This document shows positions 16,330 to 43,264 of a DNA stretch of 64,000 nt, piece by piece. This DNA is from a virus (lineage: Duplodnaviria > Heunggongvirae > Uroviricota > Caudoviricetes). The DNA lies in the IMG/VR virus record IMGVR_UViG_3300045988_003495; one strand, 5' to 3'. Positions within the stretch are counted from its first letter, which is position 1. Each line of letters starts with the position of its first letter. The notes beneath the pieces are model-generated. The model was not told the origin of the DNA. It did not search any database and was given only the letters and a program-made list of their open reading frames with translations. The translations under genes were made by a program, and so were the position numbers.

Positions 16330-16595
16330 CAGAGAATCAAGATACTTTTTACGTAGAAGGGTACTTACTGTTACCACGACCAAAAGAGACTTATATGCGA
16401 ATTGATTTCTCACCAACCATTATGGATAATGTGATGTGCCATATCTTTATGCAAGGTGTCACAGCACAGCTTAAACATGTTGGTAAAGAGTGCAAAATAA
16501 AGGTTGACACTCATCCAGAAATCAAAGAGAATCACTACACATGGTTCTTACCAGATTCTAAAGAAATCTTAGCAGTTCTAAAAACGAGGAAGTAA
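16326..16595 (+). CDS. hypothetical protein
   Basis: 89 aa ORF, ATGA-coupled. Confidence 0.4.
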   Translation: MTENQDTFYVEGYLLLPRPKETYMRIDFSPTIMDNVMCHIFMQGVTAQLKHVGKECKIKVDTHPEIKENHYTWFLPDSKEILAVLKTRK

Positions 16596-16597
16596 CT

Positions 16598-16921
16598 ATG
16601 CAGATTAATGGAAGAGAATTTGTAGCCGTTTACTACGAGAAGGATAAAGAGGTTGGTGTAGCACAAGTAACCTACGGCAACGGTAAGTGGTTATATGGAA
16701 CAATAGCAGTAGTAGGGACAAGGAGTGATACAAAAACCTTTAAAGATTGTGTTGACCTTCTTGAAGAATCCATCCAGAATCATTGGTGTCTGATATGGAT
16801 GACTGACAACGAAGTGATGGAGCGTTTCAAAAAGATTGATATCAACATTGACAGTATTGAGCATGTTGATTTATATGAACTGACCGAAAAGGTAAACTAT
16901 GAAAGCTATAGAGGTAATTGA
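16598..16921 (+). CDS. hypothetical protein
   Basis: 107 aa ORF. Confidence 0.4.
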   Translation: MQINGREFVAVYYEKDKEVGVAQVTYGNGKWLYGTIAVVGTRSDTKTFKDCVDLLEESIQNHWCLIWMTDNEVMERFKKIDINIDSIEHVDLYELTEKVNYESYRGN

Positions 16922-17126
16922 CAAAGATACTGGAGAAGTCACGTCAGCATGTGTTTTCGTGAGTCACGACACAGTGATACCATTTTACAGCCTCGACAGT
17001 TTTAGTTTTACAGGGACAACTCCAGAGGAATACTTTGAAGACCTCACCTTTGCCAGAATTTCCATAAACACATTCTATAAATGCTTCTATGATGAAGGTA
17101 AAGAATTACGAGAAACTGAACTATAA
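16899..17126 (+). CDS. hypothetical protein
   Basis: 75 aa ORF. Confidence 0.35.
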   Translation: MKAIEVIDKDTGEVTSACVFVSHDTVIPFYSLDSFSFTGTTPEEYFEDLTFARISINTFYKCFYDEGKELRETEL

Positions 17127-17138
17127 GGTATATATTAT

Positions 17139-17339
17139 ATGGCTGACTTCTGCAAAGACTGTTCTATCGAAATGTTCGGACGTGATACAGGTGACTTAAA
17201 AGGTCTCGTCACTGAAGATGACTTTAAAGCTGGTTATGCGATTCCAGTAATCTGTGAAGGCTGTGGGTGTATCTGGGTAGACCACGAAGGGCAACGTGTA
17301 AAGCCTTCAGAAGATAAAGAATCTTGGGAGAGATGTTAA
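17139..17339 (+). CDS. small Cys-rich (zinc-binding?) protein
   Basis: 66 aa; CKDC...CEGCGC cysteine pairs. Confidence 0.35.
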   Translation: MADFCKDCSIEMFGRDTGDLKGLVTEDDFKAGYAIPVICEGCGCIWVDHEGQRVKPSEDKESWERC

Positions 17340-18125
17340 ATGGGTATTGTAAAAATCATCAAAGGTGATATCTTTGACGCCTTTGATAAAGGTAAGTTTG
17401 ACATCATTGGTCATGGTTGTAACTGTATGAATTTAATGGGTGCAGGTATTGCAGCAACTATTTCTAAGCGTTATCCAAAAGTGTATGATACTGACACAGA
17501 AGTTTACCTGTTTGCAGGTGGCATTCGTCACAAACCCTGTGAAAATTTACTAGGTAATTTCTCTGTAGCACGTTTAAAACAAGGCCGTATAGCTAACCTT
17601 TACACCCAACTTCATACTGGTAAAGATGCCCGATACAGTGCTTTAGAGTCATCCTTGAAACAGCTTAACAGATACTGTGAAGTTAACCAGTTGAAGAAAG
17701 TTGGTCTACCTATGATTGGTGCAGGTATCGGTGGACTTGACCCTCAAGCTGTCACAGTTATCATTAATCAGGTGATGAAGAGTGTAGATGTTTATCTGTA
17801 TGTCTATGAAGCAAAAATGTATAATGAGTTACACTCAGGTTGGAAAAACTACTGTGAACCAGAATACTTTGCAGGTGTAGTTGTGTTCACAGATAACGCA
17901 GTTACCCTCTTCAGACGAAGAAAAGGTAAGATACATCAAAGTAACCCTCCGGTTGAAAAGATGTCTCTAAGTAACGCTCTAGTTACCCACCTGTCGAAGA
18001 GCAATCACAGAATTGCAGTAACATTTGGCAGTGATGCAGATGCTTATATCTATGCAAGAACTGATGAGGATATTGAGTTAATCCTCTCTTCACCAGAACT
18101 TACCTTCTTAGACGCAAAGAACTAA
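17340..18125 (+). CDS. macro-domain protein (ADP-ribose binding/processing) with C-terminal extension
   Basis: 261 aa; canonical macro signatures GDIFDAF...DIIGHGCNC and MGAGIAATIS in the N-terminal 60 aa. Confidence 0.7.
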   Translation: MGIVKIIKGDIFDAFDKGKFDIIGHGCNCMNLMGAGIAATISKRYPKVYDTDTEVYLFAGGIRHKPCENLLGNFSVARLKQGRIANLYTQLHTGKDARYSALESSLKQLNRYCEVNQLKKVGLPMIGAGIGGLDPQAVTVIINQVMKSVDVYLYVYEAKMYNELHSGWKNYCEPEYFAGVVVFTDNAVTLFRRRKGKIHQSNPPVEKMSLSNALVTHLSKSNHRIAVTFGSDADAYIYARTDEDIELILSSPELTFLDAKN

Positions 18126-24266: not shown

Positions 24267-24292
24267 AGCCCCTATTTAAAGGGGCTTTTTTA
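24267..24292 (+). terminator. intrinsic terminator closing the rightward early region
   Basis: agcccc-tatttaaa-ggggct followed by tttttt; a second hairpin sits at 24239-24254. Confidence 0.6.
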
Positions 24293-24636
24293 CGTCTATT
24301 GAATCCTTATACAATCCCTTTCCTTTCCTTTCCAGAATCTTACTAGACCTTAAAAGCAATAACTCTATAGTCTACTCTATAACCTCTTATCAAATCAACT
24401 TAAATATAAGCCCATAACCCGAAAGGGAAGGGCAACCGTTTAAACGCTCTATAAAGCTCTATAACAGCCTTATCAACCTAACTTAAGGGATTGCATTAAC
24501 TCACCCTTAAAAGCCCTTTATAAAGCTTCTCAGAGACTTAAAAGAATCTTATAAGGGTGTAAGCTTTATCGTCTCGTTAGTTATCTTGTGAATATCTAAA
24601 AAGGGCTTGTTAGTGTCTTAAAAGTATGTTATAGGG

Positions 24637-24698
24637 GCTATAAAGTTACGTAAAAGAGGCTATAAAGTTACGTAAAAGAGGCTATAAAGTTACGTAAA
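24637..24698. repeat. tandem direct repeat, 22-bp unit gctataaagttacgtaaaagag x about 2.8
   Basis: Units at 24637-24658 and 24659-24680, partial third at 24681-24698. Confidence 0.8.
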
Positions 24699-24759
24699 TA
24701 CTAGCCCCCTTAACATTCTCTTAACAATTTCTTAACAATCCCTACATAGTTATGCTTTT

Positions 24760-25800
24760 AAGGCACTTGTTAGCAACTTGTTAGCCCCTTGTTAAATCTC
24801 TGTTAAGACCACGTAAAAGCCTTGTAAGAGTCTTTGACATAGCCTTAAAAGCTCCTGTAAAGCCCTATAAAGAGCTATCTGTACAGTTGGGGTGTAACTA
24901 CTAGGAAGAGACTTAAAAGGGGCTATACAGAGCTATAGAGAGCTTTTAAGAGGTATGTTTAAGGAATCACTAAGAAAGGAAAGGGAACGATAAGAAAAGA
25001 GATAGTGACCATGTTAATAGCTTGTTAAAAAGATTAAACACTTGTTAGAGACTTGTTAATTATCTTAACAAAATAACTCTTAAAAATTAACTTGTTAGCT
25101 CTTGTTAGTCATCTGTTAAGAGACTATAAAGACCATGTATCGACTGTTAAGAACTTGTTACAACCTTGTTAGTTCTGTTAAGAGTCTGTTAAGACCTCTG
25201 AAGAGATGTTAAGAAGGTGTAAGGACTGTTAAGAGATTGTTAAGGATATTTTAAAATTTTGCAAAGTACTTGTAAGGGAGCTGTTAAGGGCTACCAAGCA
25301 GATATACACCCTAATCAGATATTTTTCAGTTCCTTCAAAGACCCTAAAAAATGACTTGACAGTCTTATTTTATAAAAATTTTAAAATTCTGAATAATTAC
25401 CTAGACAGTCTTTTAAAAATACAGGTAGAAACAGGCTTATAAGATACCTTGTTAATACCGTGTTAGACCTTGTGAGATAAGGTCTGTAAAGATATTCCTG
25501 TTAAGTTTGTTAAAACAGTCTATATAGAGGCTTAGTAACACCTAGTGAACACCTATAGAGAGTGTCATAGCTTACATAGAGATTAAGAGGTGTATAGGAG
25601 CTTCTAAGAGTGTGTAGAGAGATGGTTAAGATGATTGTATAGGTTGTTTAGAAGGCTTGTTAGAAGAGTGTTTAGATGGCTATTTAGAAGGGCTATACAG
25701 AGGGCTATTAAGACCACTAGATAGTTACTAAGATACTATATAGTACTATATAACTATATAGAGAGTAAGATTAAGAAGATTGTTAAGAAGGATAGATATT
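24760..25800. repeat. dense array of short motifs TGTTA(A/G) (cTTGTTAG / cTGTTAAG), about 30 copies
   Basis: For example cttgttagcaacttgttagccccttgttaaatctctgttaag and gactgttaagaacttgttacaaccttgttagttctgttaagagtctgttaagacc; no ORF of 60 aa or more in any frame. Confidence 0.7.
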
Positions 25801-25859
25801 TTATTCACATATGATGGTGACCCAGAGGTTGGGACAACCGATAAAATTTTATAAAAATT

Positions 25860-25883
25860 AAAAAGCCCCCAATTAAGGAGGCT
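25860..25883 (-). terminator. intrinsic terminator for the leftward gene block
   Basis: On the minus strand: agcctcc-ttaatt-gggggct followed by ttttt, just after the stop of 25895-26518. Confidence 0.45.
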
Positions 25884-25894
25884 CTTAAGATATT

Positions 25895-33640: not shown

Positions 33641-33815
33641 GAACTATTGCAAGTTAAAAAAGTTGTTGACAAAGTACTTGACAAGGTGTAGGCTTATAAA
33701 TACTTAGAAGATAACTTAAAAGGTTCCTCTAAAAAGGCTATTTAAACAGATATCTTTCTGGATATCTATCTTTTATCTTAAAAGCCTTTTAAGAGGTCTT
33801 ATAAGAGGCATACCA

Positions 33816-36886: not shown

Positions 36887-36959
36887 GGGGTATTAGTTTA
36901 GACGGTGAAAATACGGGATTATCTCTCCTGAGCCGCGAGTTCGATTCTCACATACCTCG
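36887..36959 (+). tRNA. tRNA with atypical anticodon loop (ttatctc, apparent anticodon ATC; Asp-like?)
   Basis: Good acceptor (ggggtat/atacctc), D-arm and T-arm (gcgag-ttcgatt-ctcac), but A34 and T37 are unusual; Asp is otherwise absent from the cluster. Confidence 0.4.
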
Positions 36960-37110
36960 CCAATTTTGAGAGGGCTATTTAGCCCCTCCCTTAAAGAGTT
37001 CTTACGAGTATCCTTTAAAGGAGCAGAAGACCAAATACAGCAAGTTACTTAAAATTTCAAGCCAATTCAATTTTGAAAAATTTAAAACTTGGTCTGGCTC
37101 AACAAATTTA

Positions 37111-41641: not shown

Positions 41642-41662
41642 TTCTATTTGCGGAGGCGCTTA

Positions 41663-43264
41663 ATGGACTTAAATACTGTTAAGCAGAAGCGAGTGGAAGA
41701 TGTTAGGAAAGTCCTAGCTGGAGAGTTGGGGCTTTCTGATGAAGTAAAAGAAATTATTAAATCATTCGGTAAAGACCCCTCTAAATTCCTTCCAACTCAA
41801 ATTCTGACTTTATTAAGATACACACCAGACCAAGTTCGCCTCATCTTTAAATTGATGACTGATAAGAACTATGTAGCCCCTCAGCCGGGTTCTCAAGAGG
41901 TGTTTTTAAATACTAATGCTGACTTGGTTTTATATGGTGGTGCTGCTGGTGCTGGTAAAACTGCTGCATTGTTAATGGACTCTTTAAGGTTTATTGAAGA
42001 CCCTAACTATAATGCTGTATATTTCCGTCGAAATACAACACAGTTACAAGGTGGTTTATGGCCTGCTGCAAAGAAACTATTTGGTAAGTTTGGTGGGGTT
42101 CCTCATGAGCAGAAGATGACTATCACATTCCCTTCTGGGGCAACTATCAAGTTCACCTACCTAGAACTTGAAAAGCACGCTGAAGGTCATCAGGGTATTG
42201 AATACTCAGCTATTTACTTTGACGAAGGTACACACTTCTCTGCTTCACAGATTTCATACCTACAAACCCGTCTACGTTCTGGTGCTGAAGGTGATTCATA
42301 CATGAAGATTTCCATGAACCCAGACAGAGACCACTTTATTTACGATTGGGTAGAGCCATTCTTAGATGAAGAAGGCTATCCAGACCCTGAAAAGTGTGGT
42401 CGTATTCGTTGGTATGTAATGAATGATGGTGTGATGGTTTCTGATTGGGAGAGAGACAAGATTCTTGAAATGTTCCCTCTTGAGATTCCTCAAACATACA
42501 CCTTTATCTCTGGTACGATTGATGATAACCCAATTCTTGACTTCTTAGAACCAAAGTATCGCGGTAAGCTTGAAAACAACACCCCTGTAAACGTTGCAAG
42601 ACTTCGTTTCGGTAACTGGAAGGCTCGTGCAGAAGGTTCGAACTATTGGCAAAGACAATGGTGTGAGATTGTTGATTCACTCCCAGAAGATGTATTTGAT
42701 GTTAGAGCATGGGACTTAGCAGCAACTTTACCATCTGAGGTTAACCCTAATCCAGACTGGACAGCAGGTGTTAAGATGGGTAAATCTAAAAAAGACGGTT
42801 GCTATTATATCATTGATGTAGTAAGATTTAGAGATAGACCCTCTGGAGTCGAAACACAAATTAATTTGACTGCTGAAAGTGACGGTAAGCGAACTGGTAT
42901 TTTTATCCCTCAAGACCCAGGCGCTGCTGGTAAATCCTACGCAACATCCCTCATCAGGAAACTTGCCGAGAAAGGCTATCGTGCAAGAGCTAAACCAACA
43001 AATAAAGATAAAGTTACCCGCTTTGCGGGATTTTCTGCTGCTTCTGAAGCTGGACTTGTAAAAGTCTTGAGAGGTAGTTGGAATGAAGCTTATTTTCAAG
43101 AGCTTGAAGGCTTTTGTGGTGATGGCAAAACTAAAGATGACCAAGTGGATGCTACCAGTGATGCTTTCAACAGTCTTAACGAAGTTAAATTATTCAAGCC
43201 ACCATCAATGGGTGCTCACACAGACTTAGTGAGAGGAAACCCATATGAGGGGCTTAGACGTTGA
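41663..43264 (+). CDS. terL: terminase large subunit
   Basis: Walker A LYGGAAGAGKT; ORF track starts at TTG 41648, but ATG 41663 follows RBS ggagg. Confidence 0.85.
   Translation: MDLNTVKQKRVEDVRKVLAGELGLSDEVKEIIKSFGKDPSKFLPTQILTLLRYTPDQVRLIFKLMTDKNYVAPQPGSQEVFLNTNADLVLYGGAAGAGKTAALLMDSLRFIEDPNYNAVYFRRNTTQLQGGLWPAAKKLFGKFGGVPHEQKMTITFPSGATIKFTYLELEKHAEGHQGIEYSAIYFDEGTHFSASQISYLQTRLRSGAEGDSYMKISMNPDRDHFIYDWVEPFLDEEGYPDPEKCGRIRWYVMNDGVMVSDWERDKILEMFPLEIPQTYTFISGTIDDNPILDFLEPKYRGKLENNTPVNVARLRFGNWKARAEGSNYWQRQWCEIVDSLPEDVFDVRAWDLAATLPSEVNPNPDWTAGVKMGKSKKDGCYYIIDVVRFRDRPSGVETQINLTAESDGKRTGIFIPQDPGAAGKSYATSLIRKLAEKGYRARAKPTNKDKVTRFAGFSAASEAGLVKVLRGSWNEAYFQELEGFCGDGKTKDDQVDATSDAFNSLNEVKLFKPPSMGAHTDLVRGNPYEGLRR

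Follow-up and report, generated by a model that had tools for sequence, protein, structure and literature searches.

The DNA analysed here (the window) is a 64-kb stretch of a Caudoviricetes virus, 64,000 nucleotides of IMG/VR record IMGVR_UViG_3300045988_003495, and all coordinates refer to it. Our subject is a 1.57-kb non-coding interval, positions 24293-25859, at which a rightward early-gene block and a leftward gene block converge; the corresponding place in phage Felix O1 lies where genes 23 and 24, and with them transcription units 97-131/1-23 and 40-24, run towards each other and end. The interval holds no open reading frame (ORF) of 60 amino acids or more, as an initial annotation made from the letters alone had noted, and its longest ORFs encode 31 amino acids (25259-25354, plus strand) and 37 amino acids (25604-25717, minus strand). 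A terminator scan recovers the convergent terminators that had been proposed on its two sides, and the left one is identical to terminator t23, gcccctatttaaaggggctttttt, in the Felix O1 terminator table. By megablast, 257 phage records match the interval at 75-95% identity, nearly all of them from three genera of the subfamily Ounavirinae: Felixounavirus (the majority), Suspvirus and Mooglevirus. On these matches we assign the window to Felixounavirus, as a Felix O1-like myovirus; two Felix O1-like hallmarks, a cluster of 25 transfer RNA (tRNA) genes and a typical large terminase subunit (TerL), are present in it. The homologies described below make it very likely that the direct terminal repeat (DTR) and the virion ends are located in this interval, and we consider it probable that the interval is the concatemer junction, equipped with cis-acting signals for end processing (Table 1).

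The position of the repeat follows from relatives whose ends are either mapped or given by their database records. In GenBank, Salmonella phage UAB_69 has an annotated DTR of 618 bp, whose full-length alignment with 24702-25297 shows 90.4% identity, and the Ro111lw record carries an exact 613-bp repeat at both ends, which maps to 24704-25295. The records of H12 and pEP20 begin at DTR boundaries of the interval. For UAB_Phi87, Bal31 digestion and run-off sequencing gave a DTR of 608 bp (Bardina et al.; PMC4837284), and PhageTerm analysis of Pr103Blw gave one of 581 bp (PMC8303462); in the Felix O1 genome paper (PMC3185647) short terminal repeats were no more than an inference, and the interval is not described there. 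TerL of the Felix O1 type is reported to cluster with a DTR clade (PMC4837284). The termini are fixed rather than permuted, with the UAB_69, Ro111lw, H12 and pEP20 records starting or ending at the same nucleotide within 2 nucleotides, and we therefore rejected a headful pac site, which would give permuted, imprecise ends and a pac fragment. In two genera the ends are mapped or given by the termini of records, and homology to them places the predicted left end of the virion DNA at about 24702-24704 and its right end at about 25295-25297. The single DTR copy in the window would be an assembly collapse of the two virion copies. A packaging site or physical genome end had been among the roles first proposed for the interval, and this role is now strongly supported, since the homologous interval in relatives holds a mapped DTR.

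Table 1. Features of the non-coding interval and its surroundings, in window coordinates (DTR, direct terminal repeat).
Feature	Coordinates	Strand	Basis or remark
Rho-independent terminator, end of rightward early-gene block	24267..24292 (stem 24267-24286 + T-run)	+	Terminator scan; annotated in ASO1A
Pre-DTR non-coding flank, predicted unique right end of virion DNA	24293..24701	.	CTTAAAAG/CTATAAAG-class motifs and conserved blocks
Outer boundary-element copy TGTTATAGGGGCTA	24627..24640	+	Pattern search; inverted repeat I8
22-bp tandem GGCTATAAAGTTACGTAAAAGA, 2.9 copies, 100% matches	24636..24698	.	Tandem Repeats Finder; adjoins left DTR boundary
Predicted DTR, 596 bp	24702..25297	.	Homology to mapped DTRs of relatives
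Left-terminus boundary element, first 14 nucleotides of DTR	24702..24715	-	TAGCCCCCTTAACA on +, TGTTAAGGGGGCTA on -
Three minus-orientation TGTTAA sites, 11-bp spacing, just inside left terminus	24710..24737	-	Site positions
Four YTGTTAR sites exactly 11 bp apart	24767..24806	+	Site positions; conserved in alignment
Main TGTTAR array: 14 plus TGTTAR, one TGTTAC, one minus copy; spacing 9-11 or 20-22 bp	25012..25243	+	
Right-terminus boundary element TGTTAAGGGCTA	25282..25293	+	Pattern search; cut 2-4 nucleotides downstream; inside invariant block TGTTAAGGGCTACCAAGCAGATATACA
GCAGATATACA, string directly outside right DTR boundary	25298..25308	.	Invariant in 11/11 aligned phages
Post-DTR non-coding flank, predicted unique left end of virion DNA	25298..25859	.	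More TGTTA pairs, CTATATAG palindromes, A+T-rich block
Conserved A+T-rich block TATTTTATAAAAATTTTAAAATTCTGAATAATTA between GACAGTCTT direct repeats	25356..25413	.	TATTTTATAAAAATTT core invariant in alignment
Rho-independent terminator, end of leftward gene block	25861..25886	-	Terminator scan; annotated in ASO1A, wV8, Moogle
Large terminase subunit TerL	41648..43264	+	PHROG 979, E = 7e-234

Four database records call for separate comment. Overlaps between the record ends of REP10 (77 bp) and PC79-13 (127 bp) lie off the DTR boundaries, and we treated them as assembly overlaps and not as physical repeats. GenBank GU169904.1, a 147-kb record named Staphylococcus phage SA1, contains a Felix O1-type DTR region at 135882-136465 with 89% identity and is probably chimeric or contaminated. 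Queried with the 596-bp DTR, KP869113.1 (E. coli O157 typing phage 15) aligns in three pieces spread over 971 bp (1266-2236), a pattern that points to local duplication or expansion within the DTR region of this phage.

Each predicted terminus is marked by a short element. The pattern TGTTA-N(1-2)-GGG-N(0-2)-CTA occurs three times in the 64 kb against 0.14 expected, a count reached in 1 of 100 shuffles, and all three copies lie at or beside the DTR boundaries, the element at the left terminus being inverted relative to the one at the right. A search with the 12-mer TGTTAAGGGCTA allowing 2 mismatches had missed the left boundary through a 2-nucleotide indel and had looked like chance, which the gapped pattern resolved. 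Together with the first 14 nucleotides of the DTR, the outer copy forms an inverted repeat that brackets the 22-bp tandem, every unit of which contains the palindrome TTACGTAA. A hairpin formed by single-stranded DNA across the left boundary has a predicted folding free energy of -20 kcal/mol (z = -3.0).

An alignment of the window with ten relatives, 11 sequences in all, spans three genera. Both DTR boundaries fall within the most conserved blocks of the region and appear to be under selection. The left element has the exact pattern in 9 of the 11 sequences and its TAGCCC half in all of them; its conserved context reads GTTACGTAAA.. up to the boundary and TAGCCCCCTTAACATT.TCTTAACAA..TCTTAACAA from the boundary inward. 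At the right end, the context TGTTAAGGGCTACCAA before the boundary and GCAGATATACA directly beyond it is invariant in 11/11 sequences. Read inward from either virion end, the DNA presents the same element (TAGCCC..TTAACA) and then CTTAACA sites one helical turn apart.

Two small features of the flanks stand beside these elements. Two copies of the heptamer CAGATAT follow closely on the right DTR boundary, on its outer side (25299-25322; GCAGATATACA ... CAGATATTTTT), and the heptamer recurs in a palindrome, ACAGATATCTTTCTGGATATCT, at 33745-33768 in the 5' leader of the first rightward gene past a switch region at 33.7 kb; the two places may share a protein-binding site. In the pre-DTR flank a small conserved hairpin, CCC-GAAA-GGG, lies at 24411-24436, and ASO1A has a CCCC-AGAAA-GGGG hairpin at the same place, a comparison which suggests that structure rather than sequence is kept.

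Repeat content in the interval is far above chance, measured as enrichment over the rest of the window on both strands. The initial annotation had counted about 30 copies of TGTTA(A/G), and indeed 30 of the 134 TGTTAR matches in the window lie within 24608-25786 (26 on the plus strand and 4 on the minus), for a density of about 19 per kb in the interval vs 1.7 per kb elsewhere. Enriched 8-mers include CTTGTTAG (8 in the interval, 6 elsewhere, ~91-fold), CTGTTAAG (8 and 7, ~80-fold), CTATAAAG (6 and 6, ~68-fold) and CTTAAAAG (6 and 15, ~30-fold), the last two being motifs that had been reported earlier as present in several copies. The remaining repeats of that first reading are also there: Tandem Repeats Finder returns the CCTTT tract (3.4 copies at 24317-24333) and the 22-bp tandem, which is perfect, and direct reading finds the GACAGTCTT pair at 25358-25366 and 25405-25413.

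The TGTTA sites are regularly placed. Among the 27 gaps between successive plus-strand sites, 14 measure 9-12 bp and 11 of these are exactly 11 bp; random placement predicts 2.5 such gaps, and 14 were reached in none of 5000 trials. The sites are also arranged symmetrically about the repeat, in that the minus-oriented sites just inside the left terminus pair with plus-oriented sites near the right terminus as inverted repeats of 19-37 nucleotides (I1 and I10).

The CTTAAAAG motif favours intergenic DNA across the genome: 8 of its 15 copies outside the interval are intergenic (loci of note are 19416 and 22074, also 13980 and 23850, and 33715-33793). Two of its copies are within a repeated hairpin element of about 57 bp (GGGGCTTAAAAGttgatatCTTAAGCCCCagataaag) that matches the 57-bp direct repeat reported for Felix O1, and three lie in the divergent-promoter switch region near 33.7 kb, beside CTTTTAAG and CTTATAAG.

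Conservation of the interval exceeds that of the genes around it. Between genera the non-coding interval is 74-86% identical in nucleotides, as against about 70% for the flanking genes and about 50% amino-acid identity for the right flanking protein. The pre-DTR flank shares 79-86% nucleotide identity with Mooglevirus and Suspvirus, above the flanking genes; the post-DTR flank shares 74-78% across genera and 96% within Felixounavirus. The interval was found in all relatives examined, and this comparison, which the initial annotation had proposed as a check, favours function. Across the alignment, moreover, the five core columns of TGTTA are 0.93-0.96 identical vs 0.73-0.83 for the spacers (Mann-Whitney p = 3e-10 within the DTR). 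This footprint is compatible with the binding half of the earlier suggestion that the repeats form a protein-binding array; titration of a host or phage factor, the other half, is not indicated. One arrangement within the array, CTGTTAAGAGTCTGTTAAGA (25175-25196 and similar), combines a 7-bp repeat with a 4-bp spacer, which we take to be the geometry of sites for winged-helix proteins of the OmpR/PhoB type (pho box CTGTCATAWAWCTGTCAY).

Might the interval instead encode a structured non-coding RNA or small proteins? Some 200-nucleotide windows fold better than shuffled sequence, with z-scores down to -4.25, and several GenBank records annotate short hypothetical ORFs here. Low z-scores are expected, however, from inverted motif copies and palindromes, and conservation sits on short motif cores and not on paired columns. 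In Rfam, a search at E values as high as 1 gave nothing but a sub-threshold Phe-leader match on the terminator, promoter-like sites occur at chance (10 vs 9.1 expected), and the terminators face inward on both sides. As for proteins, the two longest ORFs are hit by stops, frameshifts or lost starts in relatives, and no ORF of at least 40 amino acids is shared, so that a short coding gene does not explain the region. We regard a coding or RNA role as very improbable, and the structured RNA listed among the first candidate roles is not supported.

A more distant genus provides a test of the motifs. Erwinia phage phiEa21-4 (Kolesnikvirus) yields no megablast match to the interval, yet it has a syntenic ORF-free gap from 16472 to about 17900. 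TGTTAA is present there in 17 copies (24-fold enrichment) and TGTTAAGA in 9 copies vs 5 elsewhere; copies in the left part of the array point in the minus direction and those in the right part in the plus direction, with spacings of 11, 20 or 22 bp, and the gap contains strings resembling both Felixounavirus boundaries. From these motif strings alone we predicted a DTR at 17026-17475. The record of phage M7 carries an exact 444-bp repeat at both ends, which starts at the homologous TTAGCCAC (TTAGCC) and ends directly before GTAGATATACA, and at least ten Kolesnikvirus records start within 5 nucleotides of the predicted left end. The Kolesnikvirus ends predicted from motifs are thus confirmed on the 444-bp DTR of M7, and the match means that four genera have kept the motif and the cut-site context, with replacement of the intervening sequence. 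The pre-DTR flank of phiEa21-4 (16560-16930) is packed with CTTCTAA(G/A) repeats (TTCTAA, 12 copies) in place of the CTTAAAAG/CTATAAAG class; judged from these strings, in Kolesnikvirus the flank motif is swapped and the TGTTAAG array is kept.

These comparisons also address the idea that the repeats are neutral by-products of slippage or recombination at genome ends, with no sequence-specific function. Such an origin would suit the wide variation between phages in copy number of the 22-bp tandem (about 9 in FO1a, 1-2 in SP116 and phiSUSP1) and the CCTTT tract, which is not conserved in the alignment. It is hard to reconcile with a region more conserved than its flanking coding genes, with the selective footprint on the TGTTA cores, and with a motif that persists in Kolesnikvirus despite divergence past megablast detection. 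We find this explanation scarcely credible.

How might the junction work? In the mechanism that we propose, replication would yield concatemers with one DTR per junction, so that each genome unit of a concatemer would contain the 596 bp at 24702-25297 once, and packaged DNA would have a copy at either end. The terminase, TerL with a partner, would recognise the oppositely oriented boundary elements, and opposite strands would be cut or nicked at the two boundaries; the DTR would then be duplicated by strand-displacement synthesis, following the T7 paradigm. The helically phased, oriented TGTTA(A/G) sites may act as a loading platform for a sequence-specific protein conserved across Ounavirinae; once loaded, this protein would tag the DNA so that its ends are recognised. 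An accessory part would fall to the CTTAAAAG/CTATAAAG-class motifs and to the 22-bp tandem with its palindromes, beside the left boundary, which may fold into a hairpin during processing. That the arrays serve packaging or end recognition specifically seems to us plausible, at slightly less than an even chance. A fuller version of the model is more doubtful, and we offer it tentatively: array and inverted boundary element together could constitute an Ounavirinae-wide end-recognition system for DTR myoviruses that have no recognisable small terminase, in which a protein polymerises on an array of one site per turn and positions a nuclease on the oppositely oriented elements; nicks in opposite strands would then lead to duplication of the 600-bp repeat, and the hairpin-prone tandem at the left boundary could act as a primer or processing intermediate.

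The array could alternatively consist of iterons of a replication origin in or beside the terminal repeat, where an initiator bound to the TGTTA sites would melt the A+T-rich block at 25365-25400; such a role could add to an end function. The sites are indeed direct, oriented and 11 or 22 bp apart, like plasmid and phage iterons, although phased repeats are not specific to origins. The conserved A+T-rich block is flanked by direct repeats and, if an origin is present, could be its unwinding element; the interval is predicted to be transcriptionally silent, insulated as it is by terminators, and a perfect DnaA-box match, TTATTCACA, is found at 25801-25809 near its right edge. But DnaA boxes occur at chance in the window (4 vs 4.3 expected), and neither Mooglevirus nor Suspvirus conserves this one. 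None of the adjacent genes resembles an initiator: the ORFs beside the interval match only PHROGs of unknown function, and the replication genes of Felix O1 are far away; GC skew merely tracks the direction of transcription. Finally, most of the array is inside the DTR and symmetric about the termini, a better fit to end recognition. We consider an origin role unlikely.

A further alternative keeps the sites at the ends and changes their purpose: a protein of the phage or of the host would bind the arrays so as to protect the ends or organise them, for instance by shielding them from RecBCD after injection or by controlling injection, and the arrays would not direct the terminase. The identical inward reading from either virion end (TAGCCC..TTAACA, then phased CTTAACA) would suit this, as would the 7-bp repeat with its 4-bp spacer, if its geometry is that of tandem winged-helix regulator sites such as the pho box. 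Neither a candidate protein nor an experimental hint was found, and conserved strings such as GCAGATATACA reach outside the DTR on both sides; these suit a cutting signal on the concatemer and would be needless for a protein that binds the ends of mature DNA. We judge this explanation quite improbable.

Several observations weigh against the reading of the interval as a junction with end-processing signals, or limit it. The DTR is placed by homology: the window holds a single copy, virion ends have been mapped only in relatives, and the termini differ by 2 nucleotides between sources (24702/25297 vs 24704/25295). The boundary elements are imperfectly symmetric, with a 2-nucleotide indel between them and a cut offset that differs by 2-4 nucleotides, and they show no left/right covariation, the single-base variants in phiSUSP1 and ESh20 being unmatched at the other end. 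Fourier analysis over the whole interval gave no peak above shuffles, and long-range phase coherence is not significant; as only nearest-neighbour spacing is significant, we claim local and not long-range phasing. The CTTAAAAG-class motifs, unlike TGTTAAG, are not junction-specific and are present in other intergenic elements. Among the window proteins no small terminase subunit is recognisable, and no DNA-binding partner was found. Lastly, the data do not separate a packaging role of the arrays from a role in replication or end protection.

One candidate for the small terminase subunit had been a 66-amino-acid ORF upstream of TerL; it matches PHROG 4397, of unknown function, and is strongly acidic, and we rejected it as a DNA binder. 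Elsewhere in the window, ARAGORN calls a tRNA-Asp with the unusual anticodon ATC at 36887-36962. In ASO1A a tRNA-Asp(GTC) is annotated next after tRNA-Tyr, a place at which no tRNA is called in the window, and from this discrepancy it follows that the tRNA cluster differs locally from that of close relatives.

That this genus has a DTR, and where it lies, was known before, and the interval is real, functional and mostly ordinary; the gain is accordingly incremental. Three aspects appear to be undescribed in the papers that we read: the boundary element, the selective footprint on phased TGTTA sites, and the Ounavirinae-wide conservation together with the blind prediction of Kolesnikvirus ends. 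The published descriptions of Felix O1-like DTRs that we found give length only, without the boundary element, the phased TGTTA array or conservation beyond the genus. Our literature search found no Felixounavirus transcriptome and no paper on the ends of M7, and the passages searched in the PhageMaP preprint on Bas63 contain nothing on the interval. With the true ends, the genome can be drawn in virion orientation, from a left end at about 24702 to a right end after a second copy of 24702-25297, which corrects its length by about 600 bp and shows which genes are adjacent to the ends. Felix O1-like phages are widely used in typing and biocontrol of Salmonella and E. coli, and their packaging signals matter for engineering, for the risk of plasmid transduction and for synthetic rebooting. 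Array and boundary element, both conserved, also provide a defined piece of DNA with which the missing recognition protein of terminases of this type could be sought.

Phage T7 resembles the window in architecture. It too has a short exact DTR in a non-coding junction, with oriented motifs ending in TAAAG or TTAAG inside and on both sides of the repeat: in T7 these are CCTAAAG, CTTAAAG and CATAAAG heptamers (the SRL and SRR arrays) around and within a 160-bp terminal repeat. In the textbook model of T7, each boundary is cut at a specific site and the repeat is duplicated, and the same processing would be expected here. The likeness is architectural only. There is no homology, the motif here is TGTTAAG, its spacing is 11 bp vs about 13 bp, and the repeat in the window is about four times longer. 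To our knowledge, the function of the T7 arrays is itself unresolved. The T7 junction is read by the phage's own RNA polymerase, which pauses there (PMC3276506). Felix O1 encodes no RNA polymerase, and the junction in the window, unlike that of T7, is shielded from transcription by terminators. In staphylococcal phages of the Twort-like, SPO1-related group, a short inverted element likewise marks the boundaries of long terminal repeats, but this group is unrelated, its repeats are several kb long and its element has another sequence.

Closest to the window are the DTRs of other Felix O1-like phages (608 bp in UAB_Phi87, 618 bp in UAB_69, 613 bp in Ro111lw and 581 bp in Pr103Blw), which occupy the same locus between the same flanking genes, with 80-95% nucleotide identity and identical boundary sequences. 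The Kolesnikvirus phages M7 and phiEa21-4 differ from the window in the length of the DTR (444 bp vs 596 bp), in their CTTCTAA(G/A) flank motifs and in giving no megablast match. What they share with it is their place in the gene order, a TGTTAAG array whose halves are inverted, TAGCC at the left end and, at the right end, AA followed directly past the DTR by G(C/T)AGATATACA.

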